A program made the position numbers and the translations under genes. A DNA stretch of 64,000 bases. Source: a virus. Below the pieces are notes generated by a model. That model saw nothing but the letters and a program-made list of their open reading frames with translations, was not told where the DNA came from and ran no database searches. The stretch spans positions 32,001 to 96,000 of the IMG/VR virus record IMGVR_UViG_3300010354_000044; one strand, 5' to 3'. Shown one piece after another: positions 5,118-50,961 of this stretch (position 1 is the stretch's first letter; every line of letters starts with the position of its first letter).

Positions 5118-5354
5118 ATGGTTTATGGCAAGCTTTTACTAGTTACTATTTTTGCTATGCTTTACCAACGATCTAAGGCTTCTAATCTGGCCCTACAACT
5201 TACATTGGTGTACATTATTGTAACTCTGAATTTTATATCAGCCGGTATTACTAATGCCGCGGCCACTAAAATAACAGCAGAACGTATGACGGGCCGGCCA
5301 TCGACCAATGAAGCTGTTACCTACAGGCATAAAACCACAACTCCTGCGTATTAA
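5118..5354 (+). CDS. Possible small hydrophobic protein
   Basis: Stop overlaps the start of the giant ORF (TAATG); no recognisable motif. Confidence 0.3.
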   Translation: MVYGKLLLVTIFAMLYQRSKASNLALQLTLVYIIVTLNFISAGITNAAATKITAERMTGRPSTNEAVTYRHKTTTPAY

Positions 5355-8300
5355 TGTCTTTATTCCCCGAGTACAATATATACGGGCCAGATAGTCTTGG
5401 GCGTGATGTACAAAGGTTAATAGATTCAGAAGCTGACCCTGAAAGTATTGCCCGACGTCAACTAACTTTGCCTAACCTAGAGGCAGAACGTGAAGTTGCA
5501 GCTTTTAGGTTAAACTACGGTGAGGTTCATACAAAGCCTGGGAATCGTTACAACATACTGGGCCAAAAGCTATATGACCCTTTACCTACTGCAGTAGAAG
5601 GTCGGTTGGCTACTGGCAATTTGCAGGCAAATATCACGCAAGATAGAACGATTCAATTAAGAGGGTTAGAGGTTATCAACACCCTTAACTCCGGGCTAGG
5701 GGGTACAGCAGCCCCCGCTCTTAGTAATCGCCAGGGTTCTATGGCAAATCGTTTTACTAAGACGACAGTTTTTGATAGCCTTGTAGGCCCTAGTGATACT
5801 AATATTTTACGGGGTCTTGTTAATAGTCCGGTATTTGAAGAGCCGGTTACTGTAAGGCCTACAACTCAAGATATATCAAACCAATTAGTCTTTCCGACTC
5901 AACAACGCACTAATTATAGTTCCCATTTAGGGGCCTTTGCTCATAAAAATGTTAATGAACAAGGGGTGCAGGAATTATACAATAGCGTTGTCAACCTACA
6001 AAATAGTCTGGGTAATGCTATTACGTCTATAGAAAGACAGTATGCCCAGCAAATGGTTAATGGCCGCATTGAACGAGTACTAGTCGGCGTTCGTGTAGGC
6101 ATTCGTAATTATAACGATTTATACGATGGCCTAGGTTTATATAGTCAGGCATCTTATCCCGGTGTACAGCGGGCGCACTATTTCAATTTCACAGTTAATA
6201 GAAACAACCAGGTTATAGAGACCAGTACTAATAGACTTATTACAGGCTCTCTAATCTCTCAAAACTCTGGTCATATCTCTAATATGGGGGGTCGCAATAG
6301 CGCTTATAACACCGTACTGGGTTTACTTTCTAGCTATGCTAGGTCGGCTGAAATTGAGGCTAAGTACGGAGTTACTCATAGTCTATTTAATATCATGGTT
6401 GCGAGGCAAGACTATAGCTCGTTAGGGCGGGTCTTTGCTGAAATGCTAATTCAACGTGACCAAAGTACTATTGTTAACCAGGGTAATAAGTTCAGGGAAA
6501 CGCTGGAGCTTTTACTAAGCACGACAAATAATAAGGGCCTATCGTCCATTGTAGAAAATACGGTTGATAGGATCGCCAGACAAGGTCTAGATTACTATAC
6601 AACCATTGGGGCTCTATTAGATAAAGATGTACTAGAGCAGCAAATTAATAAACTTTATAGTTATAGGAAGCAGCAGCTACTAAAGGCCTTTGAACCTATT
6701 ACGTCCCATGTAGGTGGGATTAACGAGACGTTTGGTCTAGCTGTAGATACAACTTTACGCAACCTCAATGAGCTTGTAGCTAACGATGCCGAGCAGTTTT
6801 CTATTCCTATAAACGGGCGGCGGGTCACTATTGCCGGGTTTGAAGACCTGAAAATGGCTGCGTTGTCCCTCAGTCCATCGGAGCACGCTCATTATGATTT
6901 TAGAAAGAATCAAGCGAGTAGTTCCATATTGCAGCTTTTGATGTCGCCGTTTCTAATGCCGCACGAAACAGGCTTCAGCGGCTCCCAGGCTGCCGCTCGG
7001 CTTGGTTTCTACCACATGGTAGAAACTAGGGGTGGGCGTAATATGTATGAAATATACCCTGCAGTCTACCGGCATGGTTTCGGCGGCACAAAACCTGGGG
7101 AGTACATTAAATTAATCTCAGCACAGTCCGCTAAGTCCAGCTTATTTAAATACACCTCCCATTTATATAACTTTACCGGAGCCAAGAAAGTCGTAGAGTT
7201 CTTTGAAACTCGTACAGTCTTTGAAGGTATGCCCGCCTTGCGCTATAGCTCCCTCAAAGAAGTAAGGGAACACTTGCAGAGTATCAACTATACAAGCGCT
7301 GATGAGATTATAAAAAATTACAAGACTCGGATGCATCTTGGGGCGGATGAGGAGGATGACACTGAGATTCTACTACTGCCCTTTAGAAAGGCCGAGCAGA
7401 TTAGCCAGCGGTTAAAGAATCTACTAGGCGGGCGTCCTATGCTAGAACTTAACACAACCTTCCGCCAAGCTATTCTGAAGCAGGATAAAGAGGCTCTGCT
7501 TAACTTGTTTGAGCGTAATGAGTTCGGGGATTTGTATCTAAGCGCGAACGCCCTGGCCGGTGAAGTGCCCGCTAATCTAAACAAGATACAATATGACCGT
7601 CTTATTCTAGAACGGAATCGTATCATAAAACGTCTAGGCTACGAAGGTAGGGCTTTAAGTGATAGCGAAAAACTCATACTATCCACCGAGCTTGTTAAGG
7701 CCATGCGGGCAGCAGAGCTTGATATATTTGACGGAGGCGGTTTTGTACAAGGTCGCCGGACCCGGCGAGTTGCTGTAGCAATGGGTGTGAACACCCTTAG
7801 CGACTTCATGCTTGTTAATAATGATTACTTGCAAGCATCGTCTTTTGGGTACATGCATGTTAGTAACCAAAAAATTGCTATTACGCATACCCTTAAAACA
7901 GATAAAGTCGGTACGATACGGCAGCCTGACCCTTTATTTGATGCAAAGGTCAACTTTATTGCTAGCGCATTTAGGCCAGGGACTATTGTCTACTTACAAC
8001 CAAAGGCTTTAGAGAATGAGAAGGTAAAGGATAGCTTAAGCAGATTAGCGGCTAAGTTACGCAGTGAATATCTGGCCAAGAATTTAGACAGCCGCTATTT
8101 AGATGCGCAGGTTACGCAAGCTTTACTACAGTCTTTCCCTGCTCTTGATTCAGTTAGCTTTACTGATGGTGAGTTAACCACAGTAATGCTCAAAGCTGGT
8201 GCATATCAGTTTACTAATGACTCCATTAACTTCCTAGGGGCTCTGGAAGGAAGCAGAATCCGACTAGGATTAATGAATAAAGGGGGGCGCTTTAATCTAA

Positions 8301-22553: not shown

Positions 22554-23411
22554 GTGAGTTACATTCAAAGTCAGACATTCTTACCTTCCGGCGGTGGCTT
22601 TAGCTTTAAGTACACCTTCAGCGATAGCACCAGCAGCGGGCCATCGGCGGGGCAGGTGCGGCTCAATAATGCAGCCTCCGCCAGCGCTACTCAAATATTT
22701 ATCAGCGAGACAGACCGCAACAGCAAAAATATGGCAGCCTTGCTGGACTTGGTTGCCGCCAATACTGGCTTGTTGTTGACCAGCGAGGCGGACCCTAGCC
22801 GGTACGCTTACTATGTTGTCACTGGCAGCACCGACAATAGTAGCGATCGCACCTTGGCGGTAACCCATGTGGCCAGCAGTAGCACGCTGACTGGGAACGT
22901 GACCATATCCGTTGCTGGGGGTGGTGGGGGTAGTGGTGGTGCCTCATTGACGCTAACAGAGCAAGCGCAGATCCCAAGCACAAGCGGTGATGAAATCAAG
23001 TTAGCCAACGTCAGTAATAACTTTCAATGGCGGTTAGAAAGCAACGGTCTTACCTACACCGCAGCCGCTACCAACCGAAGCCAGTCCTATACTGGAGCTC
23101 AGACAGTTTCGAGCATCAGTTTAATAGACACATTTACTATTAGTACAAACGCGAGTCAAGGGAACGTTTTTACTGTTACATTATTTGGAAATAGAACATT
23201 AGGAGCTCCCACTAATCTACAGGCTGGGGGAACCTATTTATGGATCATAACTCAAGGAAGTAGTTCCAGAACTCTGCAATATAATTCAATATTTAAATTC
23301 CCTAACGGTTTAGTGCCTGAATTAAGTACTGCAGCTAACGCAATTGATGTTCTGACCTGTGTATATAACGGGACTGCCTTATTGTGTAACTTAGTTAAGG
23401 ACTTTAGGTAA
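22554..23411 (+). CDS. Tail fibre-like protein
   Basis: Ser/Thr/Gly-rich; C-terminal FTVTL.GNRTL..P...ITQG...LST.ANAIDVL domain common in fibres. Confidence 0.6.
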   Translation: MSYIQSQTFLPSGGGFSFKYTFSDSTSSGPSAGQVRLNNAASASATQIFISETDRNSKNMAALLDLVAANTGLLLTSEADPSRYAYYVVTGSTDNSSDRTLAVTHVASSSTLTGNVTISVAGGGGGSGGASLTLTEQAQIPSTSGDEIKLANVSNNFQWRLESNGLTYTAAATNRSQSYTGAQTVSSISLIDTFTISTNASQGNVFTVTLFGNRTLGAPTNLQAGGTYLWIITQGSSSRTLQYNSIFKFPNGLVPELSTAANAIDVLTCVYNGTALLCNLVKDFR

Positions 23412-29055: not shown

Positions 29056-29078
29056 AGCCGCTCTTGAGCGGCTTTTTT
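29056..29078 (+). terminator. Intrinsic terminator-like hairpin
   Basis: AGCCGCTC-TT-GAGCGGCT followed by a T tract. Confidence 0.55.
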
Positions 29079-32539: not shown

Positions 32540-32749
32540 AACTCTGTCTAAGCTGCGCCAATTAATCTAATTCTGCTTTGCAGCCTAGGCAGAGTTCTAT
32601 TCGCTGCGCCTGTCGCCTGCCCCTGTAGGCTACTTGCGCAGCTATTTAGTCAATCCATGACCCAGACATAGGGTCATTAAATATATATGTCCGGTTTGTC
32701 CAGCCCGTCCAAAGCTGGATTACTCACCTATTCCCAAGGAGGGAACATC
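32540..32749 (+). ncRNA. Structured leader: long hairpin + PK1 + PK3 + SD hairpin
   Basis: Homologous to 33180-33416 with compensatory changes. Confidence 0.6.
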
Positions 32750-33179: not shown

Positions 33180-33416
33180 CAGCCGGAGTATAAGCTGCGC
33201 CTATTGGCTGTATACACGCAGTTTCTACTCCGGCTAAGTGGGTGTGTCTGCTGCGCCTATCCCCTGCCCCTGTCGGCTACCTGTAGGACTATTCCTACTT
33301 ATGGCTGACAGGGGCATTTTGCTTTGACCCAGATATGGGGTCGTTAAATATACGTATTCGGTTTGTCCAGCCCGCCCAAAGCTGGATTAGTAAATTATTC
33401 CCAAGGAGGGAACATC
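33180..33416 (+). ncRNA. Structured leader of the helicase-RNAP gene
   Basis: AGCCGGAGTA/TACTCCGGCT hairpin, degenerate tRNA-like element, PK1, PK3, TTCCC-AAGGA-GGGAA. Confidence 0.6.
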
Positions 33417-36400: not shown

Positions 36401-39400
36401 AGCGCCCAGTGCCTTTAGCTATGGCCTGCCTATCGTCAAGGCTGTGCTTGCAGAGCACCTGGCCGAGGTGCTTTGTCAACTTGGCTATAGCGAGGCTGTA
36501 GCAGGGATGGTAAGCATCCCTGCTGGGTGGAATCTGCCTTGCCCGCAGATGACTGTCGCTAAGCTCAAGAATATGCTTGAGTACATTAGCGACGTGTTCT
36601 CTTCTTTTGGTATCAAGGATTACGAGTATATCTCGTTGAGTCCTGATGCCACGGAGGAGAAGTTCACCGTGTACATCTGCGGCATTGAATTTGCCGTGGA
36701 TGCTCAAGGTGTAACCTTGGTTGACGCGCTGAATCAGAAGGCCATATACGCCACGTATATGGCCCTTCCTATTTGCCATAGAAGCATCCGGGAGGATGAA
36801 GGCGCTTTGATGAGCCCTCACGCGGTCTTCGCCTATATGCTAGCTGAGGTTGTCTTGCCTCTGCTAGTTCGGGTAGACCGTGATAGCTACCGGAATAGGC
36901 TGGTAGGTAGCAATGTCATGCAAACCTACTTCCGAGTAGCTGGGGCGGTAAACACGTATCTTCGTAATTACGTGTCTATTGACCTCCGTTCAGCTACCAT
37001 CGGTGAGCTAGACGACGCAGCAGAAGCCCGCAACCGGGGTGTCGTGGCAGTAGCCTTGAACTACCCCCGCTCCCTATACCGGGATGCTCTGCCTTCAGAG
37101 GTCAAGTCTGGCAATGGATTCTCCATGCTTAACGTAGGCCTTATGAAGGGAAACATCTACGTTGGGGGTGGCAAGGCTATGCCTTCTGAGCTCAGCGTAG
37201 AGGAACGGCAGAACCTAATCCTTGAGCGCGCTGCGCTTAAGACTTTGGGTTACGCTAACACTCAAGTAGTCCACAAGCGGATGCTTGAGCTCGGCTTCTG
37301 CCAAGAGCCGTTCGGGCGGATGACTGTGGTATCGCAGGACATCCATGGCATTAACTTCACAGGTCAGAAAGAAGCTGTGAAGGACTTCTGGGAAAGCCAG
37401 GGCGTCGTAGATGTCATGGAGGTGGCTGCAATCCTAGGCTGCAGAGCAGACTGGACGGAGATCGCGCGAGAAACTTTCGTCGCGTTGTCCAATAAGGGCG
37501 CTAAGCAGCTCAAGCGGACGGCCAACTTCTACCACAATGGCTGTATCTTCATTAGCCAGGCGGTGCAGGCGGCTCAGACCAACGGGGTCTTCAATGAAAT
37601 CAAGGCACTGGCTGTTAAGGCAATTATTGCCAACAGTGCTTTATTCGGTGGCCCTGGTATGGTTTGGGCTAACAAGCAGAAGATTCAGGACATGGGCATC
37701 CGGTACCGCACCGGTGGCCAGGTCTATGAATTCAGCTCCGAGAGTCAGCTGTACTGCGAAGGCTTCGCTTATGAAGCTCAGCATTATAACGAGCACTCCG
37801 GCTGGAACAGCGTGGAGCCTGTAGACCTCCATGTTGTAGAAGGCCGGCCCTTCGGCTTGCTCATCAAGCACGACGGGTACGAGGCAAACATCTCTGCAGA
37901 GCAGAGTGGCCAGGTCACTAAGATCATGTGGCGCTGGGTCACGAAGTTCAATGCCGAGGTGATGGAACTCCGGCTCATCTATGATAAGCGGGAGTATGGC
38001 GCCTTTAAGATCCGTAATGGCTACAAGGGCCTAGTTGCCTTCGTTGAGCCTGAACTGATCGGCAAGGGTGCTGACCTGGTTATCTTCGGGGATGCCAATA
38101 AAACCATGGACATTCTCTACTCCCGCCTACGGGAGGCCGCAGAGAGCTTCGTCCGGGTGCCCCGTGGAACTACCGTTACCCTTAACGGTAAGGACTATGA
38201 TCTCCGCGAGCTGCTGCGTTCATTGAACCAGCAGGCTGGTCCGGCCATGGGTATGGCTATTGAAGACTATGACAGGGATGATCGCCTGTTCATTGACTTC
38301 AAGCTGTTGGCTAAAGGCGCTTACGACATTGTAGGCGAGCTCTTTGAAGCTATCTTTGGCCAGTCCCACTGGTTCCGTTTTGATGGGCCCGACCTGGTCA
38401 AGTTCACGGCCCAGTATTACGGAGCCAAAGCGGAAGCCAACGAAGGCTGGCGTAAGCTGGTTCCTGCTGAGCTTAAGGGTCTAGGCTACCCGAACGCCGT
38501 CGGTTTTACCGATGGTAAAGTAAATGACCCGCATAGCAATGTGCTGGTTGTTGAAGAGGGTGTCGTGCACCACCGTTCCTGGGTCTATGCCGCTAAAGAC
38601 GGTATTGACCTGTATGTTCCGATTAAGCCGGAATATACCACCGTCAGCCAGAACGTGAACTATGCACCTTTGGCTCTCGGCCCTATTGTAGACCCCAGTA
38701 TCCCGACTGAGGTGGCCCGGGAGCTCATCCATGCTGGTGAGGCCAATCGGACCAAGTACACGCTTCTGCATATTTTGCGGAAGCATAGCCTGGGTCCTGT
38801 GGCGTTCACGATGGGTGGCGTTGAAGTGCAGACCGTAACTCTGGCTAGCACGGATACGTTTGCTGGCTTCTTTGGTGAGCATACCCAGATGCTTCAGCAC
38901 AAACGGGCCCTCAGCCGCACTAGTTTTGTACGCGCACTCTGCAACCTATTGCAGACTAAAGTGCTGTGCGTGGAAACTAGTAGATGGACCGAGAGTGGTA
39001 GGGTGATGGCTAACATTTACCTACCTCTGTTGTCCAGCTTTATCATCGGCTCGCTGGATGACCATGCCGATGAGAGCAGCCTCGCGGGTAATGCCTTCAT
39101 GTTCTTTGACATGTGGGCCGCGGGTGAATCGCTCAGTAGCCCAGCCATGGTCAAGATTGCAACTACCATAAGCAATCTGATCAGCAAGCTCTGCGACGGT
39201 AATCGTATGCAGAAGCAGCTGACCTATGGTCCTACCGCTGTAGGTGCGAAGTTGGGTGCATTGCCCATTATCCCCACTGGGGAGCTATGGGTGCTGCGTG
39301 GTGGCGAAGTGCATCGTCGCTTGAAAGTGCGCTTTGGCGATGCCATTAACAATGGCTACGTCATGATGGTGCGTGCGCCTATGACCCGTTCTTGCATCTG

Positions 39401-41942
39401 CAAACTGCGGGTTGTAGACGCTGAGCAGCGTGGGTTTGTACTAAACGGAGTGATGATGTATACATCTCCCTTCGGTCAGTACTTTAATCTAGGTGACTTT
39501 GACGGCGATGGTGTCTTTACCTATGACATCACTAAGTACGTCAACGCTGGGCTCATCAAGCAAGACTCCTACGAGTCTATGCTGGAGTTCCAGAAGTCCC
39601 TGCTCGGGTATGACATGATGTCCCCTGAGTTCTGGGGTTCTGGCGCCCCTGCTCAGTATTATGCAGACCACTATGACATTCCTAGCTACGCTGCTCTGCA
39701 GAAGAAGCTGGGTATGAAGTGTCTGGATAGCGAAGGGCGTTTGATGAACCCTGAGAAGGCCCATGTCTTTAACCGAAAAGCGTTTGAGCTAAGGCAGACC
39801 GGGGCATATGAACAGCAGACCCGGTATGTCTCTTCTTCTTATGGAGTAGAGTACTTTGCTCAGGTCTTTGCTGAGATCTGCCGGGCTATGGGCTTTAAAG
39901 ACTTCATGTGGCTGGCTGACCTAGCGCCGCAGCTGCAGTCCTTGTATGAGGTCGCCCTGGGTGGATACGACAACAACATGTTGTATGTCGCCTTTGGCCT
40001 TATGGACCGAGCCTATAACGGTATGAAGCATACGCCGCACTGGCTGAAGATTGTAGATGAAGATATCTACGATCGCTTCGTTACCGGCAAGACTCATTAC
40101 TACCGGCCTACGGCGTTTCTGAAGGATACTGAGTATACAGCCTTCACCGGGCTGCCCTTTACTGAGGTTCTTCCTTACATGCAGACCCTAGGCTTCTGCT
40201 GGAAGGATGGTAAGCGGGATGATGAGGCTATCCATGGCTTCATCAATGCCGCTATGCTCGCAGGGCTTGCTAAGGTTGCCCGAAAGCTTCCTAAGCCTGA
40301 AGACAGCACTAGCCCGGCTGCGATCGTAGACCAGCTGTTTGAAGATATGGTCGCTGTCTACGGGCGTGACTTTGCTACGGCTGTTCATATGGCGCAGATT
40401 ATCTGCGACACAAGCCGTAATAAAGATAATCAGCGGGGTGGTCAACTGTGCCGGCTTGTTCATGAGCACATGATTGAGCGTTCAGCCGTTGCGCTATTGT
40501 TCAAGCTCATCATGGATGCAAAGCAGCGTATTAACGCGCCCACGCCCGAGCTTAATATTAACGATGTCATTGCTTTGACTCGTTATATTGAGCTTGCTGA
40601 TGTCCTCTCTGAACAGGATGAGGAGTTCCTTGATGTACCTAGTACATCTGGGGAAGCTGCGGCAGAGCCTGAAGATGATAATCAAGGTGATGATGATGAA
40701 GGGGGCATTGCTGTGCCGGAGCCTACTCCGGATAAGCCCGGCCCTGCACCAGGAGCTGCTGAGCCCATTGAGGAGAGCCCTGCTGGTATTGTTCAAGAAG
40801 ATGCAGGATCTTGTATCGTACAAGATCCAGCTACTGTGGAGGTAAAATCCATGTACGTGCAGAACTGGTTCTCAAATATGCTCCCATTAGAAGTCCCAAT
40901 TAAGACTGACTTTGGGACCTTTCAAACGGTAGAGAACTACTACCAGGCTATGAAAACCCTAGACTTGGAGCAAAGGAAAATTATAGCTGAGCTATCTCCC
41001 CACGCTAGTAAGCGTTATGGTCGGCGTAAAATTCAATTACGCTCTGACTGGGAGCAGATCAAGCTAGCTGTTATGGAGGAAGCTCTTCGCAAGAAATTCG
41101 CTCCTGGGACTAAAGCCCTTGAGAGATTACTTGCAGAAAAAGGTGAGATAGTTGAATGGAATAACTGGGGTGATACTTACTGGGGGGCTCTTGCTACTTT
41201 AAGTAATGACGGAACAGTTATTCCTGTTGAGCCTCGTAAAGGCTGTAACCATCTTGGGCGTTTGCTCATGGCCGTTAGAGACGAACATTTAGCGGAGAAT
41301 AAAGTGACCGGAATATTTGACGTGCCCGCGCAGGTGCTGGTTAATCCAGTTAACTGCGGCGGTACCTGGGGCGGAGCTCTTTCCAAAGGGTTCATAGACC
41401 GATACCCAGAAAATACAGCCGCCCTCAAAGTGGCCTCTGAAGCCGGGTCCGTTAAGATAGGGCAGGTGTTAGTGACTGAGGAAGGGGGTAAGTTCATTGT
41501 GAACTTACCTACTAAGCTGGATGCTAACATCCCCAGCCGGCTCGTTGACATAGAAGCTGGTTTATACGCCTTACTAGCCTGGGCTCTGGTTAATAAGCCC
41601 AAATCCATTGCCATACCCGCCCTAGGGTGTGGCCTCGGTGGGCTTAAGTGGGAGGATGTGCTCCCAGTGATTAAACAGGTAGCCACGCTTATGGGTAACC
41701 ATGGTATTGTGGTTTACCTGTTTAACGACCGTGCCGAGCTAGTCACGGTTGACGGAGTTCCTGTCCAGTACGAGGAAGAAATCGTAGAGGAAGAGGTAGT
41801 AGAGCCCCAGCGTCCTACTCTTCCTAAGCTACCTACCCTCAAGCCTCCACAGGCTAACGATGAGGACGAGTATGTGGAGTATGTGGAGCAGGACCCCAAC
41901 ATGCCTGAAGCTGAAGTAGGGGGTCTCTTCAATAATCAATAA
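33417..41942 (+). CDS. Multidomain protein: Dda/RecD-like SF1B helicase + single-chain two-barrel RNA polymerase + NADAR + DarG-like macrodomain
   Basis: Helicase: GYAGTGKTT, IVDEASM, GDPAQLPPV, TVHKSQGST, YVAISRA. RNAP: FKIRNGYKG...ADLVIF (38007), VRAP...NLGDFDGD (39495-39509). NADAR: FSN...VENYYQAMK...DWEQIK...WGDTYWG...NHLGRLLM. Macro: VNPVNCGG...NLPTK...IAIPALGCGLGGLKW. ATG at 33417 after AAGGAGG. Confidence 0.85.
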   Translation: MAILTILTVTATISASAPGAKPKARKRPNRAAQKAQQRRAAFLRRKRQSRNGRRPFHGVRYCNIADRPKARQQKFWARARKLGVAREVAHLLWMGDDLGARRVLKEARRRYQVKRSLVLRTPVDSRGDEALQARPSLKPSTGRVFERGTKGKPPRNWGLTKKSQPEPSWRDFLVKAREVHRDILADLVRVVGGEPTDTVVCMAQTPPPPSPQGRQSTLQRVNGLGLPFELSEDQLTALDKMLAFAESPARGGTFTLEGYAGTGKTTLLPIFLRLLPRNIRAATAVTALSNKAARVLSEKLRGQGLRVEASTIHKLLGIKAIKQNAEIQFDRGGSCTISENLLVIVDEASMLGEVLWNHMTSYFKSIKFLFTGDPAQLPPVNETGAPCFSLADDYAKLTKVLRHGGPVLRESTLVRDLGHGTYHPAQSLSEGNNVFCYQHINWFKVISGLVSDPEKWAKFTDDPNFFRIVAWRNARVAELNTYVRQLLHVGKKLERFMVGDLVILDAPYEDLFTGDEFWVRAVNNGKVDGWNCLEITLEPVHDAKAETIVRVLAAEEASRYKQESDRLRELATQHVIPWAEYWALQELFAGLSYGYAMTVHKSQGSTFRNVLVDYSDIKLCRGLELNKLIYVAISRASKNVIMNVGTSPIYERVKPAGEIDTGPPEIPEPPVVNAQEPVVEEAPPTLPEEESVAEVGASVSIAVAPQEPAVEETQAAPINTGQPVTETTTKEETMWFVEIDVAELTFFATKTNHAGTFPVNGLEVFKKGLLGKGYKLVETQVGPEGEELKLVYAKQPPTALGGERAPADPPDQPFASGNVAQFKQTVLNFIAQRLGKLHQQYPESGMRELIVRMTEAINYSPRDAFFAAPLSDMLSMWVFEATHSKELGNRPIPVIEKEAYYLSGKCLTGRPSLIGDLDLLLSRQRLDIEGDSYRLRYPIEQVEAAILDAEGRDLYEGYRVILSEGIKSHAVLNGNFPHLGVEVEDMAAALTVHQLAPSAFSYGLPIVKAVLAEHLAEVLCQLGYSEAVAGMVSIPAGWNLPCPQMTVAKLKNMLEYISDVFSSFGIKDYEYISLSPDATEEKFTVYICGIEFAVDAQGVTLVDALNQKAIYATYMALPICHRSIREDEGALMSPHAVFAYMLAEVVLPLLVRVDRDSYRNRLVGSNVMQTYFRVAGAVNTYLRNYVSIDLRSATIGELDDAAEARNRGVVAVALNYPRSLYRDALPSEVKSGNGFSMLNVGLMKGNIYVGGGKAMPSELSVEERQNLILERAALKTLGYANTQVVHKRMLELGFCQEPFGRMTVVSQDIHGINFTGQKEAVKDFWESQGVVDVMEVAAILGCRADWTEIARETFVALSNKGAKQLKRTANFYHNGCIFISQAVQAAQTNGVFNEIKALAVKAIIANSALFGGPGMVWANKQKIQDMGIRYRTGGQVYEFSSESQLYCEGFAYEAQHYNEHSGWNSVEPVDLHVVEGRPFGLLIKHDGYEANISAEQSGQVTKIMWRWVTKFNAEVMELRLIYDKREYGAFKIRNGYKGLVAFVEPELIGKGADLVIFGDANKTMDILYSRLREAAESFVRVPRGTTVTLNGKDYDLRELLRSLNQQAGPAMGMAIEDYDRDDRLFIDFKLLAKGAYDIVGELFEAIFGQSHWFRFDGPDLVKFTAQYYGAKAEANEGWRKLVPAELKGLGYPNAVGFTDGKVNDPHSNVLVVEEGVVHHRSWVYAAKDGIDLYVPIKPEYTTVSQNVNYAPLALGPIVDPSIPTEVARELIHAGEANRTKYTLLHILRKHSLGPVAFTMGGVEVQTVTLASTDTFAGFFGEHTQMLQHKRALSRTSFVRALCNLLQTKVLCVETSRWTESGRVMANIYLPLLSSFIIGSLDDHADESSLAGNAFMFFDMWAAGESLSSPAMVKIATTISNLISKLCDGNRMQKQLTYGPTAVGAKLGALPIIPTGELWVLRGGEVHRRLKVRFGDAINNGYVMMVRAPMTRSCICKLRVVDAEQRGFVLNGVMMYTSPFGQYFNLGDFDGDGVFTYDITKYVNAGLIKQDSYESMLEFQKSLLGYDMMSPEFWGSGAPAQYYADHYDIPSYAALQKKLGMKCLDSEGRLMNPEKAHVFNRKAFELRQTGAYEQQTRYVSSSYGVEYFAQVFAEICRAMGFKDFMWLADLAPQLQSLYEVALGGYDNNMLYVAFGLMDRAYNGMKHTPHWLKIVDEDIYDRFVTGKTHYYRPTAFLKDTEYTAFTGLPFTEVLPYMQTLGFCWKDGKRDDEAIHGFINAAMLAGLAKVARKLPKPEDSTSPAAIVDQLFEDMVAVYGRDFATAVHMAQIICDTSRNKDNQRGGQLCRLVHEHMIERSAVALLFKLIMDAKQRINAPTPELNINDVIALTRYIELADVLSEQDEEFLDVPSTSGEAAAEPEDDNQGDDDEGGIAVPEPTPDKPGPAPGAAEPIEESPAGIVQEDAGSCIVQDPATVEVKSMYVQNWFSNMLPLEVPIKTDFGTFQTVENYYQAMKTLDLEQRKIIAELSPHASKRYGRRKIQLRSDWEQIKLAVMEEALRKKFAPGTKALERLLAEKGEIVEWNNWGDTYWGALATLSNDGTVIPVEPRKGCNHLGRLLMAVRDEHLAENKVTGIFDVPAQVLVNPVNCGGTWGGALSKGFIDRYPENTAALKVASEAGSVKIGQVLVTEEGGKFIVNLPTKLDANIPSRLVDIEAGLYALLAWALVNKPKSIAIPALGCGLGGLKWEDVLPVIKQVATLMGNHGIVVYLFNDRAELVTVDGVPVQYEEEIVEEEVVEPQRPTLPKLPTLKPPQANDEDEYVEYVEQDPNMPEAEVGGLFNNQ

Positions 41943-42872: not shown

Positions 42873-43281
42873 GCCCCCCATTCTGCCGTCCTCCCAAGGG
42901 CGGCAGTTTGGTTTGGATGTTACGTAACGGCGAAGTCTTGACCTCCTTCCCCTTACCGACACATCCCACCTCGGCCCTACCCGGTGGGCTAGAAAACTAC
43001 CGGGCGGTGTCGGCTAAGGCGACGTTAAAGACACGCGCGGGGGGAGGACCTAAGCTCCAAAACCCCGCCATGAGGTGTACCAGGACTGTACACCAAATAA
43101 GCCCAGTCCCCTCTAGGGGTTCAAAAAGCCTGGGTCAATGTGCAAAGGGGGCTTGGCCAGCCCCCGGATGGGCTCGCTTTGCCCTCATGCCCAGGGCGCC
43201 CTGGGCAAAAACCAAACCGCCGTTGTGTTAGCTATGATAAGCTAATATAGCGGCGGTTTGGTTTAGGAAAGGTGTAAAAGA

Positions 43282-43668
43282 ATGTTCGTATCACAAATTG
43301 AAGAAGTCTTGTACCGCCCCTATACAACGGGGATGATACGGGAGGAGCTGCCGCAGTCCACAATAAAAGCGGTGGTCGTCTCCCTAGCGGGGACAGACTA
43401 CACGCAACTCCCGGAGGAGGGAGATCTAGATACAGGAAATCTAGGCCTATGCCTGGAATTCCCTGCTTTTGGCTGCCCTCAATGGGTAGTGGCAAAAGTG
43501 GCAAAGAGGACCTCCCACTACCCGTGGGTAGGGGTCTTTGACCACGGTAAAAGGGAGTTCGTGGTAATACACACGATTGCCGATTACTGGGTACCTCAGT
43601 ACCCGGTAATGGGGGAACTCCTTAGCCGCACTCCAGAGGGGGTGGAGCTAGTGCTTCCCCCGGTGTAG
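43282..43668 (+). CDS. Hypothetical protein
   Basis: Bounded by family hairpins; RBS upstream. Confidence 0.6.
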   Translation: MFVSQIEEVLYRPYTTGMIREELPQSTIKAVVVSLAGTDYTQLPEEGDLDTGNLGLCLEFPAFGCPQWVVAKVAKRTSHYPWVGVFDHGKREFVVIHTIADYWVPQYPVMGELLSRTPEGVELVLPPV

Positions 43669-43744
43669 GCTAATCCTACAAACCGCCGTGTATTAGCTTA
43701 TTATAGTTAATACACGGCGGTTTGATTTTGACGGAGTAGAGACT

Positions 43745-44131
43745 ATGGAAATTATGATCAAGTACCCCGCAGGGGGTACCGCTATTGTTTGCGAGCTCCC
43801 CCCTGCAGGGAGTCTCCCTACCGCGTTTGCGTTAGAAGATGTCTCTAGACCTAGACAAGTAATCCGCATTGAGCGGAGAGAGGAGGGCGACCTCCTGGTT
43901 GAACGGGGAATCGTAGGTAGACACTGGCACGTATATAAGGTAGCTACTATTAAGGTAGCTGGTATTTGGGGGGAAGTCCGCGGGGACTTCTGCTCCATTA
44001 AGGAAGGGGATGGGACAATAATTGAATACAGAAAAGGCCCAGGGGATTATTGTATCTCCTGCGGGACTTTTCAAGGCCCTCGCGGGGAGTACCGCGAGGG
44101 CCATAACTGCTACATGTGCGGGATGAATTAG
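43745..44131 (+). CDS. Hypothetical protein with C-terminal Zn ribbon
   Basis: CISC...CYMC. Confidence 0.6.
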   Translation: MEIMIKYPAGGTAIVCELPPAGSLPTAFALEDVSRPRQVIRIERREEGDLLVERGIVGRHWHVYKVATIKVAGIWGEVRGDFCSIKEGDGTIIEYRKGPGDYCISCGTFQGPRGEYREGHNCYMCGMN

Positions 44132-44132
44132 C

Positions 44133-44261
44133 ATGTATATGTCTCCGTTAAAACAGCTAGGCTTGTGGGTATCAGGAGTGGCGATTGGCTTTGCGATCGC
44201 CACTGGTATCCAATTGGTAGAGTGCCCGCCACCGCTACCATCTACAGAGCAACAGCCTTGA
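44133..44261 (+). CDS. Small membrane peptide (42 aa, not in ORF track)
   Basis: MYMSPLKQLGLWVSGVAIGFAIATGIQLVECPPP...; fills the gap exactly. Confidence 0.4.
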   Translation: MYMSPLKQLGLWVSGVAIGFAIATGIQLVECPPPLPSTEQQP

Positions 44262-44371
44262 AACCAAACCGCCGTTACTAAGCTACTATAAGCAAAGTAA
44301 CGGCGGTTTGATTTATTCCACGGATTCACTACAATAATTACCCCCGACCGTGGCGGGGGAGGAGGAAAATT

Positions 44372-45298
44372 ATGAGCCTGTTGTTTGTATTAAACCCCGC
44401 GCCCAAGGCGCAGGAGGAAATGATCAAATTGATTAAGGCCCAGCCCGGGCCTTACATCGGGTTGGAAATGACGGTCCCAGAGCTAGCAGCTCTGATGGAC
44501 GTCAATATAGACCCTCAACATACAGGCTTTGACGCAGCGACGAGCTGCGTCAAAGCCTGCCTAGAAGGGTCCTTCCTGGTGAAGGGAGGGGCCTACTTCA
44601 CCGTCCGCGCTGACCTGGACGCATTCGCGTCCTACCTGATCCTCGCGGGTCTAGTAGATATTAATAATGAAGATGTCTTCGTCAGACTCATGATGATTCA
44701 TGTAGCGGATACGTTCGCCCATGGCCCTTGGTCACTTGGAGCTAGCGGTACTGGCTATGAAAAGCCTTCGTTGGCGGGTATTAACCGCTGCGTGGCGGAC
44801 TACAAGCTGCCGGTAGAGGAACGGCTCGCTGCTCTCCAGCATTGGCTGGAAACCGGGGAGCATCCAGAGAAACACCTGGCTGAGGTAGAAGCCGAGGCCG
44901 AGGAAATCGCCACCGCCTTAGAAAGCGGGCAGACTGTAGTAACCATTTTAAGTGGTTACACCATAGTACAGTCTGAGTTGCGCGGAGCACCCAGCATTGG
45001 CTACCGGAGTAATCCGGTGGTTCTTGCGTGGAACCCGGCCTTCCCCATTTACGGGGAAATTGATGGAAATCAGGTTGTCGTTGGGCAAGGGCTTAAGTAC
45101 TCCGTCTGCCAGTGGGCAGAGGGGTACATTGACCTGAATGGTTTCCTTGCGGAAATCCGTAAGGAAGAGCCCGGGTGGGGAGGAAGCCCCACGTTCGTAA
45201 GCTCGCCCCAGAACGTGGCTAGTGAGGTCCCACTACAGCGTGTGCAAGAACTGTTTTACCAGTTCTTGCACCCTACTGCACAACTTGCTAGTTGCTAA
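44372..45298 (+). CDS. Putative DHH-superfamily-like phosphoesterase
   Basis: NIDPQH, RADLDA and C-terminal GWGGS motifs; GGAGG RBS. Confidence 0.4.
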   Translation: MSLLFVLNPAPKAQEEMIKLIKAQPGPYIGLEMTVPELAALMDVNIDPQHTGFDAATSCVKACLEGSFLVKGGAYFTVRADLDAFASYLILAGLVDINNEDVFVRLMMIHVADTFAHGPWSLGASGTGYEKPSLAGINRCVADYKLPVEERLAALQHWLETGEHPEKHLAEVEAEAEEIATALESGQTVVTILSGYTIVQSELRGAPSIGYRSNPVVLAWNPAFPIYGEIDGNQVVVGQGLKYSVCQWAEGYIDLNGFLAEIRKEEPGWGGSPTFVSSPQNVASEVPLQRVQELFYQFLHPTAQLASC

Positions 45299-45386
45299 TG
45301 TTTCGTAAATCAAACCGCCGTTACTAAGCTATTATGCAAGGTAACGGCGGTTTGATTTACATAGCTATAGCTAAGGGAGAAACTAA

Positions 45387-45773
45387 ATGGATTGGGTCAG
45401 AACGATCCAGGAGCAGGTAGCTCCTGTTATGCTGAGTGAGTTTGAGGACCGAAAAAGACGCCTAACGGTTTTCCTGGAATTATGGAAACGTCAAGAGCCC
45501 CAAGCATATGCTAAATGGGCCCAAGAGGAGGAAGAGGCCACACTTGCCGACTGGCAGTGGGCTAACGGCACGGGAAATGGGACGTTTGGCCCTCTGTCGG
45601 TCTATCATATAGATCCGACAGAATATATAAAGATAGGTGTCCCCACTAAACAAGCCTACGCGGGCTTGTTCAACAAGGATACCCGAACATGGACCGGCGT
45701 GTACCTAAATAAAATACAAACCCTATGCTTGAGTAGTAAACTACCCAAGCATTGCGAGATAAGGGTCATATAG
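45387..45773 (+). CDS. Hypothetical protein
   Basis: GGAG RBS; bounded by hairpins. Confidence 0.6.
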   Translation: MDWVRTIQEQVAPVMLSEFEDRKRRLTVFLELWKRQEPQAYAKWAQEEEEATLADWQWANGTGNGTFGPLSVYHIDPTEYIKIGVPTKQAYAGLFNKDTRTWTGVYLNKIQTLCLSSKLPKHCEIRVI

Positions 45774-45840
45774 GTTGCTGCCGTGGTGTTGACTCCCTAG
45801 GTCAACACCACGGCGGTTAGATTTGCAGTAGGAAATAACC

Positions 45841-46029
45841 ATGCTTACAGAACACCAAAAAAATCACGCAGCGAAGACCCTCAGGCTATTTGAAGTTCTT
45901 CCTCCATACAGCGAGGAAGAGCTTACTAAGATCGTAAATGCGCATGCGCAAATCAGCGCATCGCTGAAGGATATAATAGTAAAGCGGGATGGAAGCGGCC
46001 ACGTTGATTGGGGAGATTTATTCTTCTAG
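45841..46029 (+). CDS. Hypothetical protein
   Basis: AGGA RBS after a hairpin. Confidence 0.5.
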   Translation: MLTEHQKNHAAKTLRLFEVLPPYSEEELTKIVNAHAQISASLKDIIVKRDGSGHVDWGDLFF

Positions 46030-46206
46030 GCCGCCGAAACTGCCGCAAGAGGCCGGGTAAACGGGTGTCTACTGATGGAGGAAACGTGCAATGAAATAAA
46101 AGCCGCACGTTCTAGCCTCCGGTAGGTGTACGAACTGCCGGTAATAAAGCCTATTACAGCTTATTACCGGCAGTTTGATATAGTTACCCCAGGAGGGGAG
46201 GAATAT

Positions 46207-46542
46207 ATGAACGTAGTATTTAAGGAGTTCATGGTTGCGCTAGTAGAGAATAATATCAGTTTCTCCTTTCATCAGACGCAGCGTGGAGCATCAAAGGGGA
46301 TTACCATACACTTCGGTACCGCTGAGGGGAGCTATTTCTTCACTCCAACGGAAAAAGAAATCGCGCTATACGCCCCGAACAGGACGTTCACCGGGGGTTA
46401 CATTTACTCCTTTGAGGATGTAGCCCAACTGGCGTTCAAGTATTGGACATCCTCTGAGGACAGTTATGTCCTAGAGGAGTGGGAGGATATTTTCCGGGAA
46501 CGGGGATGGGTTGAAGAGGTTACCGTCCTCAAGCCTAAATAA
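46207..46542 (+). CDS. Hypothetical protein
   Basis: GGAGG RBS before ATG 46207. Confidence 0.6.
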   Translation: MNVVFKEFMVALVENNISFSFHQTQRGASKGITIHFGTAEGSYFFTPTEKEIALYAPNRTFTGGYIYSFEDVAQLAFKYWTSSEDSYVLEEWEDIFRERGWVEEVTVLKPK

Positions 46543-46610
46543 AAACTACCGGGGTATTGATCCTAAAAATCAATACCCCGGCTGTTTGATTTACTCATAG
46601 GGGAGGCGAA

Positions 46611-47321
46611 ATGTACTTAGTAGGGGGGTCCGTTAGGGACCTTTTGTTAGAGCTCACTGTTGACGACTACGACTTTGTATTCGTAGCCTACAGCTGGGAG
46701 CATTTGGTAGAACTAGCCCAAGGGGAGTTTGGGCCAGTTCCTAAGGCCGGGACGGAATCTGGATTTGTTGAATTTCCAGACACCTTCACCTTAAAGGGGA
46801 TGAAGGTGATTGATAGGAAGCGGCAGATCTGTGACATTGCCGCTGCCCGGCGGGAATACCACAGTGGCCCCGGGCATAAGCCCTCGGCTATTTCTTTGGC
46901 GCCTACGCTAGAGGAAGACCTAAAGCGCCGGGACTTCACAGTTAACGCGATGGCACGTGACTGGAAGACCGGTGAGTTAATTGACCTATATGGCGGGCAG
47001 GCCGACCTGTCCGCCAGGGTGCTTCGCTGTGTCGGCGATACGGAAAAACGCCTATTAGAGAACCCAGACCGGGTAATCCGGGCGTTTTATTTCCAGTGTA
47101 AACTAGTAGGCTTCACATTCTGTGAAGAGCTGGAAGCAGTTCTTCGTGAGTCTGTGGTGGTTCAAAAAGCAGTCGCCGACGACTGCCCTGACCGAAAAGC
47201 TCAGCAGCTGACTAAGCTCCTTAAAAGGGCTTCAACGGCTGAGCTGATGGGAACGATCTCCGAATACCCCCAAACATGGGCGGCGATCACAAAGGGGCTT
47301 AAGCTAAAGTTCACAACTTAA
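46611..47321 (+). CDS. tRNA nucleotidyltransferase/poly(A) polymerase family protein (head and neck only)
   Basis: YLVGGSVRDLLL...DYDF, DLKRRDFTVNAMA, ENPDRVIRAF. Confidence 0.85.
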   Translation: MYLVGGSVRDLLLELTVDDYDFVFVAYSWEHLVELAQGEFGPVPKAGTESGFVEFPDTFTLKGMKVIDRKRQICDIAAARREYHSGPGHKPSAISLAPTLEEDLKRRDFTVNAMARDWKTGELIDLYGGQADLSARVLRCVGDTEKRLLENPDRVIRAFYFQCKLVGFTFCEELEAVLRESVVVQKAVADDCPDRKAQQLTKLLKRASTAELMGTISEYPQTWAAITKGLKLKFTT

Positions 47322-47387
47322 GCACACCAGGCTGCCGCTATTACCCCCAATAGCGGCGGTTTGATTTGTAAATCTAAGGAGGGCTTT

Positions 47388-47756
47388 ATGACCAAGATAC
47401 ATCGGGACAGTCGGGGGGTGCTTTACCGCCTTCCCGACCTGGAAGACGCGCACCTAGAGAATATAATCAGGCGCCTAGAGCGGGCAGCCTGTCTAGGGGT
47501 ACGTGTTAAGGTAAAGTATGGGTACACAACCGTCTATGGCGTTGAGGCTGAGCAGTATTTAGAACTCTCAAAGTACCGCGAAGAGCAGGAAAGACGGGCT
47601 AAGATAGCAAGCTTGCGTAAAAGCGTGAGCGAACTTAAGGCTGTTTTAGCAGAGAGGCCTATTCCTAATATACAGGACATCATAAGAGCCCAAGAGGAGT
47701 GGTTTACACAATACCACTTCTACTGTAACGAACCCAAGCGTGGTGCTTACCGCTAA
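47388..47756 (+). CDS. Hypothetical protein
   Basis: AAGGAGG RBS before ATG 47388. Confidence 0.6.
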   Translation: MTKIHRDSRGVLYRLPDLEDAHLENIIRRLERAACLGVRVKVKYGYTTVYGVEAEQYLELSKYREEQERRAKIASLRKSVSELKAVLAERPIPNIQDIIRAQEEWFTQYHFYCNEPKRGAYR

Positions 47757-47832
47757 GGGTAACTAAAAATGACAAGGCCGCCTGTGTATCCTATACACCG
47801 GCGGTTTGATTTGTAAGCTTTAAGGAGGGTTC

Positions 47833-48108
47833 ATGGCTAAAGTATTTACGAAGGTAGTGGGGCATTGTAGCGAATGCCCTAATTACCGAAAGGCCCCCTG
47901 GGGCGGGCAGTGTCTGTCACTTGAGGTAGATATCTATCTTAAGGCAGACACAGAAATCCTAGCTGATTGCCCACTAGAAGGAGACGGGGTACAGGTACAG
48001 GTACAGGAACCCGAGACTAAAGTGCGCTCAAGGGTTGACTGGAGTAAGGTACCTAAAGTAATTGAGCCGGAAGAGTTAGACTTCCGGCAAGCCTGCGAGG
48101 ATGCGTAG
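47833..48108 (+). CDS. Small Cys-containing hypothetical protein
   Basis: CSECP...C...CPL; AAGGAGG RBS. Confidence 0.6.
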   Translation: MAKVFTKVVGHCSECPNYRKAPWGGQCLSLEVDIYLKADTEILADCPLEGDGVQVQVQEPETKVRSRVDWSKVPKVIEPEELDFRQACEDA

Positions 48109-49184
48109 TGATAGGCTTCATCCTGGCCCTACTAGGGAGTAGAATCCCGAACGGGCCTTTAATAGCGTTGTTCATATGCCCCTCGGCATATGACGCTATC
48201 ACCTGCTTCTTTGCAGGCCTTTACCTGAACACTCCCCGGGAGCTGATGCGCCCGGAGGAGTCCGGCAATCTGGAGCAGATGCTTGCCACAGGCGGGCGGA
48301 GGCTCCGGTTTGACGATAGGACGCTTGGCATCGCCATTGAAGTAATGGTGCATGTCAAGCTGATGATGTTCATTTTCGGTCTAGCCTTCGGAGTTTTCTT
48401 CGGCTACGTAGGCGCAGACCGGATCTATGGAATGGCGCCCTTCACCGGGGCGCTCGTTATTCTTTGGGTCATCCTGAAGAGTGACGATACGGTAAAAACC
48501 ATTATTAGCCTGGCGTTTTCAGGCGTAATGGTTTTCGCCTTAATTAAGTTGGGGTTACCTAACGCCCTGCCGGTGCTATTGCTGACTCTAAGCACGTCGC
48601 CGGCAAAAGAAGAGGAGAGCGTTGAGGTGGATGGCCTTACCGAGGTCCTCCGCTGCAAAGAGCATGCCCCGATGGATTGGCTGCTCGGCGGGATGGTTGG
48701 GCTCGTCCCTGGCCTGAACGCCAGCAACTGGGTCTGTAATTTCGGGAATTCCGATAACCGGGATAACCGATTAACGGCCCTTGCCATAGGCATATTCGCC
48801 GAGGGTATTGCCCTTGGCGTCATCATGGCCTCCCGATTTACCGGGAAGACTGCGCTTAGCCAAATGCTAAGTGATTGGCAGTTCATTCCCGGCACCACCG
48901 CGCTGCTACTCGGGCTAATCGCCTGGATGGCAGCTGCGATGCTATATCGCCGGTGGCCGCGGCTGGCGATGGCCCAGGTCCCTGGGTTAGGCCTTATTGG
49001 ACAGGTAGGGCCTCTGGCCCTGGCGGTAGTTTACGCTACTGCCAACCAATGGGCGCTCCTATTTCCAGGCAGCGGCCTAGCTGCTGCGCTGGTTATAGTA
49101 GGAGGGCTGAAGATGTTGTCAGTCTCAGTACCTGACAACATCAAACCCGTCATCGCCACCCTACCCGTCTTGGGAGGTGGGTGA
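48108..49184 (+). CDS. Polytopic membrane protein, TctA-like
   Basis: About 9-10 hydrophobic segments; LLGGMVGLVPGL motif. Confidence 0.5.
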   Translation: MIGFILALLGSRIPNGPLIALFICPSAYDAITCFFAGLYLNTPRELMRPEESGNLEQMLATGGRRLRFDDRTLGIAIEVMVHVKLMMFIFGLAFGVFFGYVGADRIYGMAPFTGALVILWVILKSDDTVKTIISLAFSGVMVFALIKLGLPNALPVLLLTLSTSPAKEEESVEVDGLTEVLRCKEHAPMDWLLGGMVGLVPGLNASNWVCNFGNSDNRDNRLTALAIGIFAEGIALGVIMASRFTGKTALSQMLSDWQFIPGTTALLLGLIAWMAAAMLYRRWPRLAMAQVPGLGLIGQVGPLALAVVYATANQWALLFPGSGLAAALVIVGGLKMLSVSVPDNIKPVIATLPVLGGG

Positions 49185-49561
49185 TGAAATTAAACTTAGC
49201 TCTAGCGCTGGGGGTGCTTGTTTTTGTTGGCCGTTGCGCCGACAATCGCACCCCGATGGAGTGGGAGGTGCATAACCTAGTCGAGTGCGACCAGGATGGG
49301 TGCTTCACAGAAGGCGGCGGTCGTGTTTCTGGCCACCACCTTCAAGAAGGCCTGCAGGAGGTGCTGATACAGAAGGGGAATAACCCAACCATCCTACGCA
49401 GCTCCCCTGTCCTAGGGAAGGAACCCCTAGGTAAAGTTACCGACATAGCCCCGGCGGGGGCGGAGTACGTAGTGACTGCTAACGGTGAGCAATACATCGT
49501 GGCAGACTGCGAAAAGGGTGCACAGCTATTCAAGAAGGGGTTAACCCTCTCCTGCGAATAG
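49181..49561 (+). CDS. Secreted or lipoprotein hypothetical
   Basis: N-terminal signal ending VGRC. Confidence 0.5.
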   Translation: MMKLNLALALGVLVFVGRCADNRTPMEWEVHNLVECDQDGCFTEGGGRVSGHHLQEGLQEVLIQKGNNPTILRSSPVLGKEPLGKVTDIAPAGAEYVVTANGEQYIVADCEKGAQLFKKGLTLSCE

Positions 49562-49794
49562 TTTGTACCCGTACAAAGGGCCCCCTCCCCTACTCCCCCT
49601 AAAAGCGGCGGGTTGGGAGAGGGTACGCTCCGCCCCCACCCCTCTCCCTCCTCCTCCTAAGCCCCCCAAGGGCGGCAGGATGGTCATGATGTTTCTTTAA
49701 ACAAATCGCTGTGTCCCCCAAGGATGCGGCGGTTTGCTTTAGGGGTTTAAACCCCTAAAGCATTATCCACTTAACCAAAACGAGTCAAATCAAA

Positions 49795-50868: not shown

Positions 50869-50916
50869 TCCCATAGGGCCTGTGTCTTCATAGGCCCTAG
50901 CTCGTTTTCTCCTAGC

Positions 50917-50961
50917 GGAGCCGGTTACCGTACCCAGGTATAGTAACCGGCTCCTTTTTTT
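50917..50961 (+). terminator. Intrinsic terminator ending the early-type region
   Basis: GGAGCCGGTTAC/GTAACCGGCTCC stem followed by T7. Confidence 0.75.

Follow-up and report, generated by a model that had tools for sequence, protein, structure and literature searches.

A discrete gene block with its own intergenic RNA elements and a fused two-barrel RNA polymerase in a freshwater phage distantly related to Ma-LMM01

Bases 32001-96000 of the 171,984-bp linear IMG/VR virus record IMGVR_UViG_3300010354_000044, a stretch of 64,000 nucleotides that we call the window and whose coordinates are used below unless the genome is named, derive from a 172-kb freshwater phage that is a distant relative of the Microcystis myovirus Ma-LMM01 and probably infects a cyanobacterium. 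The window contains a real, discrete unit, here called the block (29.0-50.96 kb), which carries two private classes of intergenic motif, ends at an intrinsic terminator, and encodes a 2859-amino acid (aa) fusion protein, P2, that its predicted structure identifies as a genuine single-chain two-barrel (double-psi beta-barrel) RNA polymerase (RNAP). A second giant protein, P1, is encoded in the virion module and shares with P2 the sequence DFDGD. Together these features suggest an early module served by a relay from P1 to P2, a plausible reading that we judge about as apt to be right as wrong.

The fusion polymerase P2

Sequence searches of Pfam, PHROGs and the PDB recognise P2 (33363-41942, + strand; the database copy starts at 33417) at its ends only, where they identify an SF1B (Dda/RecD-like) helicase (aa 245-670), a NADAR domain (aa 2500-2641) and a macrodomain (aa 2655-2770). 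The two-barrel core between them (approximately aa 1300-2400, nt 37260-40560) is defined by a structure model and by motifs. An exhaustive HMMER search with aa 1300-2450 recovered 48 relatives among 1.8 billion representatives, and an AlphaFold model of the core, built with 36 relatives as the alignment, is confident (pLDDT 84.4, pTM 0.84). Comparison of this model with the PDB using Foldseek returns Rpb2/beta and beta' chains with probability 1.0, model residues 19-467 matching Rpb2/beta and residues 648-1084 matching beta'/Rpb1. An exhaustive VIA-align search places QDE-1 first (Z 11.7, with 486 residues aligned over model residues 1-1092), and further matches are P23-45 gp96 (Z 9.8), P74 gp62 (Z 9.2) and plant RDR2. 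The catalytic loops are nearly invariant among 37 relatives, both in the basic loop FKIRNGYKG of the beta-type barrel (K250, R252 and K256) and in the VRAPM...GDFDGD segment of the beta'-type barrel (R705, P707, G745, D746, D748, G749 and D750). It is because of the confident model, the structural matches to beta and beta' and these loops that we interpret P2 as an RNA polymerase.

NADAR and macro domains (compare DarG) act on ADP-ribosylated DNA, and P2 carries one of each as two DNA de-ADP-ribosylating domains. The helicase also has a counterpart beside another polymerase of this family: in a 195-kb phage contig (L009:10001-16517) a P2-family RNAP of 1442 aa is followed directly by a separate PIF1/RecD-like helicase of 713 aa. 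Helicase and RNAP thus occur both as neighbouring genes (L009) and as fusions (P2, P0009 and P0039), which suggests that they form a conserved functional couple.

The block and its limits

At its 5′ edge the block opens, after a divergent AT-rich gap, with a small hairpin followed by T6 (29056-29079, + strand, -11.4 kcal/mol). At its other end lie tandem hairpins (50874-50961, + strand) with a combined folding energy of -48.8 kcal/mol (z = -8.7), the second of which (50917-50954, + strand) is a canonical intrinsic terminator, GC-rich, with an interrupted 16-bp stem directly followed by U7. The strong terminator placed here by a preliminary description of this DNA is therefore confirmed, at 50917-50961. 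Beyond it is a non-coding spacer of 1.15 kb (50962-52110) containing CCCCAC-type C-rich repeats (51017-51128), two 73-nt direct repeats (51187-51259 and 51444-51516) and four iteron-like copies of GGTT(C/T)AATCGCT(A/G)TC (at about 51850-51975; GGTTCAATCGCTATC), and this spacer may serve as an origin of replication or as a hub for regulation. Past the spacer the GC content drops from 0.50-0.55 in the block to about 0.44. Terminator, spacer and GC drop are the actual 3′ limits of the block. Strand is not, as the run of + strand genes that starts at 29.0 kb is unbroken to about 107.5 kb (window coordinate), some 56 kb past the block; of the one-strand block described earlier, the discrete unit containing the second polymerase gene stands, but strand sets no boundary to it. 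The genome's left end has a GC content as high as that of the block, but lacks its motifs and repeats.

Arms of a TTTGTAC...GTACAAA palindrome are found at the 5′ edge of the block (29077-29111), near its 3′ end (49562-49577), and again about 28 kb past it (at about 79330), and the palindrome may serve as the operator of a common regulator.

Intergenic motifs of the block

Two motifs, A and B, are the sole strongly recurring intergenic 9-mers of the genome, and no Rfam family matches any of the intergenic elements. The preliminary description had noted motifs of this kind in the block and none in the structural genes, and had named an even spread of them through late genes as a result that would speak against its reading; a scan of the whole 172-kb genome upholds the first statement and finds neither motif in late genes.

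Motif A has the core GTC[AG]TTAAATA and is present in eight copies, all on the + strand and all between 29.4 and 33.4 kb (29400-29432, 29676-29708, 30196-30228, 31505-31537, 32094-32126, 32213-32245, 32659-32691 and 33326-33358), the last of them just upstream of P2. At up to one mismatch, the only further match in the genome is on the − strand, far downstream. There are several indications that the motif is a structured RNA. Thirteen copies (the eight in the window, four in a 93%-identical relative, L005, and one in a 35%-identical relative, L003) can be aligned and fit an H-type pseudoknot, in which 91.5% of the cells pair, as against 63% after shuffling (none of 500 shuffles being as high) and 28-43% when the partners are slid. 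In the second helix each of the six pairs varies on both sides, and the loop between the helices is an invariant (A/G)TTAAATA. Because compensatory changes maintain the pairing, we conclude that the structure is under selection. Several copies are followed by tRNA-like T-arm modules (GGTTCGAnTCC, at 29734, 30262, 30762, 31563 and 32197) and by hairpins that contain a Shine-Dalgarno (SD) sequence, and adjacent leaders in the block are 84-98% identical to one another.

Motif B consists of a long hairpin and CGGCGGTTTGATTT, is present in 11-14 copies that all lie within 42.9-49.7 kb, and with up to one mismatch allowed, is matched nowhere else in the genome. Eleven hairpins were mapped (42883-49741, + strand, with the tail GGC(G/A)GUUUG(A/G)UUU), their 3′ arms lying at 42902, 43252, 43716, 44302, 45346, 45812, 46169, 46580, 47355, 47800 and 49728. 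Copies are situated from a few nucleotides to about 50 nt ahead of the following start codon, and the tail GGC(G/A)GTTT(G/A)NTTT, which is kept even in L003, is mostly a few nucleotides ahead of the next SD sequence. Four copies that were folded have energies of -25 to -38 kcal/mol (z -6 to -11). The stems comprise about 11-23 pairs; among 23 hairpins from three loci, 45 of the 430 pairs are G·U, and in 19 of the 23 folding is better for the sense strand than for the complementary one. The G·U pairs and the folding bias point to a function in the + strand transcript, and argue against symmetric duplex sites and against template hairpins of the N4 type. The 93%-identical relative has retained both types of motif, and they can still be recognised beside P2 homologues of 35% identity.

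Motifs A and B therefore behave as RNA structures and not as duplex promoters. The promoter hairpins of phage N4 are formed by template-strand DNA upstream of the start site, with a stem of 5-7 bp and a loop of 3 nt; motif A, a pseudoknot, and motif B, with its long stems and sense-strand G·U pairs, do not have this form. Transcription into long RNAs, with punctuation or processing at the motifs, is favoured over one promoter per gene, because the motifs behave as RNA structures, several leaders bear T-arm-like modules, and one gene of the block is for a tRNA nucleotidyltransferase (CCA-adding/poly(A) polymerase head domain; 46611-47321, + strand; Pfam PolyA_pol E 8e-24, PHROG E 8e-40). Of the earlier proposal of long RNAs processed at the motifs, the punctuated RNA is thus favoured, and cleavage at the motifs would be a further step.

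Gene content and codon usage of the block

Block genes are mostly ORFans. The others include, besides P2 with its NADAR and macro domains, two pentapeptide-repeat genes with an ORFan between them (29860-30189 and 30844-31488, + strand; Pfam Pentapeptide, E approximately 1e-31 each), and the products of the block are likely to include anti-defence and RNA-handling proteins. The block differs from the rest of the phage in its codon usage. The GC content at third codon positions is 0.58, versus 0.40-0.45 in three other sectors of the genome (SD, here the standard deviation, about 0.04-0.05). The phage encodes five tRNAs (Lys-UUU, Met, Arg-UCU, Thr-UGU and Pro-UGG), all downstream of the block (62004-62074, and genome 97506-120350), and the codons of the phage tRNAs are each 1.5-3 times rarer in the block than elsewhere (codon shares of 0.33 versus 0.52 for AAA, 0.07 versus 0.20 for AGA, 0.14 versus 0.26 for ACA, and 0.15 versus 0.22 for CCA). 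The codons read by the phage tRNAs and avoided by the block are A-ending. Low use of these codons is expected of genes translated before the phage tRNAs accumulate, and the block is therefore probably a separate, early expression class. The dedicated early region of the preliminary description accordingly stands as a region with its own cis elements, RNAP gene and codon usage, and its early timing is probable.

The giant virion-module protein P1

In a six-frame translation of the window, DFDGD occurs exactly twice, at aa 1994 of P1 and aa 2045 of P2. P1 (5354-14509, + strand; 3051 aa) contains the motif as GGDFDGD.Y (aa 1992-2000) and is the candidate for an injected RNA polymerase. By its gene context it is a protein of the virion module, with a portal gene upstream and divergent from it (2172-3599, − strand; PHROG 113 portal, E 1.9e-21), and tail-fibre-like and baseplate wedge/virion structural genes downstream in the same + strand run (22554-25948; PHROGs, E down to 3e-33). 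A distant relative, L002, has the same synteny of a giant P1-type protein with portal (Portal_Mu) and capsid genes.

Sequence and profile searches with P1 found no match in Pfam, PHROGs or the PDB, and the ESM Atlas yielded no usable match. Homologues form only five clusters in 5.8 billion proteins, and a third homology search, with a profile of the P1 family, added no further relatives. The motif GGDFDGD.Y is nonetheless invariant in the five clusters, at 23-49% identity, and GDFDGD is present in gp080 of Ma-LMM01. Two further segments are conserved in the family, V.RAGG.SG.S about 58 aa upstream of the GGDFDGD motif and PS[RK][VI]L..AGS.D..LE.HYS about 620 aa upstream of it, and are suggestive as signs of a two-barrel polymerase. 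BLASTP and profile-profile comparison detect no similarity between P1 and P2 outside the DFDGD motif. A weak resemblance of the DFDGD region of P1 to the Toprim region of GyrB (E approximately 0.8, 12.6 bits) was rejected as chance, the score not being significant.

Because the motif is invariant down to 23% identity, other motifs are conserved with it, and the gene lies among virion genes, we consider it likely from these sequence features that P1 is an RNA polymerase. If so, it is probably carried in the virion, and would be active and injected with the DNA to start transcription of the block.

Counterparts in Ma-LMM01

The best structural match of the P2 core in BFVD is an uncharacterised protein of the Microcystis phage MaMV-DC (E 9e-16, TM 0.54). 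The Microcystis phages Ma-LMM01, MaMV-DC and MaMV-DH01 (the Fukuivirus group) resemble the phage studied here in genome size (162-182 kb) and differ in that the sequence identity is too low for BLAST; tblastn of the P1 and P2 polymerase regions and of one P2 relative of about 1400 aa against GenBank phages gave no matches. In Ma-LMM01 (AB231700), gp080 (57700-68388) is a giant protein of 3562 aa with GDFDGD at aa 2537, is located beside the tail-sheath module, and is matched by the P1-family HMM with an E value of 2e-16. The polymerase region of gp064 (43811-48832), through which alone it was compared, contains RTPM...GDADGD and matches the P2-family profile (E 1.4e-8); the protein has 1673 aa versus 2859 aa for P2. 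The gp064 gene is directly upstream of gp063-gp054 and on the same strand, and these, a 5.8-kb cluster, are the only early genes of Ma-LMM01 by RNA-seq (PMC5780444). In each of its gaps this early unit has a private hairpin with a U-rich tail of conserved sequence behind it, CCCTTTTTC(Y)TT(Y)TAGTG.

Published accounts state that the Ma-LMM01 group and MaMV-DH01 encode no RNA polymerase (PMC5780444, PMC9927357), and among the papers searched we found none linking phages of the Ma-LMM01 type to DxDxD polymerases. On these profile matches, gp064 and gp080 are homologues of P2 and P1 and candidate phage polymerases missed by the published annotation. The early start sites of Ma-LMM01 have been described as having 'two palindromic 6-bp motifs' 6-8 bp upstream, read as sigma-70 sites (PMC5780444). 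We suggest that these may be arms of the intergenic GC-rich hairpins.

Genome layout and neighbouring genes

The virion module comprises − strand genes (genome 4.6-37 kb) and + strand genes (window 5.3-26 kb), and is followed at 26-29 kb by a short group of − strand genes. This group includes an Alp7A-like actin/partition gene (27884-28972, − strand) that lies directly before the block, is divergent from it, and is kept at the same position in the close relative L005. Just downstream of the block is a 259-aa protein (53147-53926) with a PHROG 'kinase' match (E 2e-75). The phage genome encodes a DnaG-type primase and a family A DNA polymerase, the latter apparently split into adjacent open reading frames of 468, 157 and 317 aa (genome 153437-156269), two of which have Pfam matches. 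Outside the window (genome 138568-139575; L011:7568-8575) a 335-aa protein strongly matches the catalytic domain of Tle1-like phospholipases of the type VI secretion system (E 7e-77), which is unusual in a phage. No sigma factor, T7-type RNAP, canonical beta' domain or DnaB-type helicase was found in the phage genome, and pattern scans of IMG/VR returned no related loci.

A model for expression of the block, and evidence against it

We propose that the block would act as a self-contained early module for host takeover, transcribed as a + strand polycistronic RNA that would be punctuated by pseudoknot and tRNA-like cassettes in its first 4 kb and by long hairpins with the GGCGGUUUGAUUU tail in its last 7 kb. 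The most likely roles of these elements are to guide processing, to stabilise 3′ ends or to bring about attenuation, and transcription of the module would stop at the canonical terminator. P1, encoded between the portal and tail genes, would be borne in the virion and injected and would start the module, and P2, made early, would assume a share of the later programme, in the manner of P23-45. The initiator of the block, the targets of P2 and the processing of the RNA are what we infer here.

Several findings weigh against this model. AlphaFold failed to model P1 (pLDDT 45 with an alignment of six sequences), the prediction being mostly helical and not recovering a two-barrel fold; hhalign of the P1 and P2 families aligns only 16 columns, around DFDGD; and a basic loop of the K.R.G.KG type was looked for in the P1 family and not found. 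The two very divergent DFDGD polymerases of the preliminary description are thus borne out in the double occurrence of the motif, in the lack of similarity beyond it and in the nature of P2, but not in that of P1. No promoter for the block was identified; sigma-70-like sites in and before it number 13 against 14 expected and are not enriched anywhere in the window, in a scan that poorly captures cyanobacterial promoters. Searches of a kind that would miss short promoters like the late ones of phiKZ found no motif in common upstream of later genes, and the earlier suggestion that the fusion polymerase drives those genes is in this respect not supported. The terminator of the block is of a type typical of bacterial RNAP, and the authors of the Ma-LMM01 RNA-seq study explained every gene class by sigma-70-like promoters of the host (PMC5780444), so that a host-independent cascade, as first described, finds no support either. 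We consider full host independence of transcription unlikely by analogy with phi14:2 and P23-45, whose late genes use host RNAP. The GC shift of the block could reflect a foreign origin of the module, and the completeness of the record is estimated at 87%. Among the sequences considered as promoters, TAAGCT(A) was dropped because its intergenic enrichment is only about two-fold, and clusters of degenerate 10-mers contained only AT-rich low-complexity words.

Comparison with other phage transcription systems

The closest known system is the relay from a virion to a non-virion polymerase in the Thermus phage P23-45, in which a virion RNAP fused to the tape measure protein, gp96, is followed by a non-virion RNAP, gp64, an unusual conserved terminator motif is present, and late genes are left to host RNAP (bioRxiv 10.1101/2022.12.01.518664 / PMC10770324). 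The two phages are alike in having two very divergent single-chain two-barrel RNAPs (P1 being a candidate here), a virion RNAP, here putative, within a giant tail or virion protein, and a non-virion RNAP gene in a short pre-early region with its own conserved motifs. They differ in that the non-virion enzyme P2 is fused to a helicase, a NADAR domain and a macrodomain, the private motifs behave as RNA structures and not as duplex promoters, and no second class of motif was found over the middle genes. The host here is probably a cyanobacterium, the relative Ma-LMM01 is a myovirus, and P1 is a putative virion enzyme.

In the crAss-like phage phi14:2, the QDE-1-related virion RNAP gp66 is injected and transcribes early genes without a detectable common promoter motif, host RNAP transcribing the middle and late ones (bioRxiv 10.1101/2020.03.07.982082). 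Like gp66, P1 is a giant virion-module protein recognisable only through a DFDxD motif, but it has no detectable sequence similarity to any solved RNAP, and crAss-like phages have one phage RNAP, not two. The jumbo phages phiKZ and AR9 also follow a two-polymerase programme, in which a virion enzyme makes early transcripts that encode the second enzyme. Their transcription is largely host-independent and uses multisubunit virion and non-virion RNAPs; these are split beta/beta' enzymes as compared with the single polypeptides here, where host independence is not indicated. The block resembles the T7 early region as a polycistronic early unit with a phage RNAP gene, intergenic hairpins (RNase III sites in T7) and a strong terminator. 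It differs from it in its pseudoknot and tRNA-like modules, and T7 has a single-subunit right-hand polymerase and no virion RNAP.

Alternative explanations

The likeness to T7 supplies a rival account that we regard as possible, if doubtful, according to which host RNAP would read the block from promoters at its 5′ edge to the terminator, host RNases would cut at the structures, P2 would be the sole phage transcriptase and act later, and P1 would be an ejection or tape-measure-like protein whose DFDGD has another role or none in early transcription. A textbook intrinsic terminator at the end of the block, long perfect intergenic hairpins like those cut by RNase III in the early region of T7, a codon usage unlike that of the rest of the phage, and the unverified and mostly helical fold of P1 all accord with it, as do the sigma-70-like motifs reported upstream of the Ma-LMM01 early genes (PMC5780444). 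It is harder to reconcile with a GGDFDGD that, in a giant protein of the virion module, is conserved out to gp080 of Ma-LMM01, an invariance difficult to explain without catalysis, and the block and the region before it are not enriched in sigma-70-like sites; the -35/-10 'palindromic' motifs of Ma-LMM01, moreover, may be the hairpin arms considered above.

An account that we find quite improbable makes P2 a machine for DNA transactions, a helicase-coupled RNA synthase working on single-stranded or damaged DNA (in priming or in a QDE-1-like manner) and removing ADP-ribose from DNA, for replication or counter-defence and with no cascade. Its best structural match, QDE-1, does transcribe single-stranded DNA together with a helicase, a helicase is fused to the RNAP here and adjoins it as a gene in another phage, ADP-ribosylated DNA is the substrate of the NADAR and macro domains, and the genome lacks a detectable helicase of the DnaB type. 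The phage has its own primase and DNA polymerase, however, and P2 also matches the transcription polymerases of P23-45 and P74, has a full beta/beta' core, and is encoded within a block of early-gene character. Very improbable, in our view, is that the block is a horizontally acquired cassette whose GC shift and private repeats come from foreign origin and local duplication and mark no temporal class. The compositional step is indeed sharp, P2-family genes are found in unrelated contigs and in a Leptolyngbya assembly, and the near-identity of adjacent leaders implies recent duplication; yet selection on structure is evident from the compensatory changes that keep the motifs paired, both types of motif recur beside P2 homologues of only 35% identity, and in Ma-LMM01 the arrangement recurs, the genes beside gp064 being early ones, as RNA-seq has proven. 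An acquired origin is also compatible with the relay from P1 to P2.

Implications

A much wider reading, which we hold to be rather a long shot, is that the early programme of the whole freshwater cyanophage lineage, including Ma-LMM01, MaMV-DC and MaMV-DH01, would run on two cryptic single-chain two-barrel RNAPs. P1/gp080 would make a long RNA that would be cut at pseudoknot, tRNA-like and hairpin marks, as in mitochondria-like tRNA punctuation and with the help of the CCA-adding enzyme, and the enzyme coupled to a helicase and ADP-ribosylation erasers would transcribe a defended, modified template.

To our knowledge, two-step phage RNAP relays are known only from a few model phages, namely N4, the phiKZ/AR9 group and P23-45. 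If the relay from P1 to P2 is correct, a cyanophage lineage would join them, and what would be novel in comparison with P23-45 is the fusion to helicase, NADAR and macro domains, the punctuation at the RNA level, and the extension to cyanophages thought to lack a polymerase. That P2 is fused to a helicase and also to two domains that remove ADP-ribose from DNA would link transcription directly to counter-defence. The Ma-LMM01 transcriptome could be read anew, as it was not explained in that study how host promoters so much alike could give rise to three temporal classes, and the private RNA modules of the block would offer a compact natural system for studies of mRNA punctuation in bacteria.

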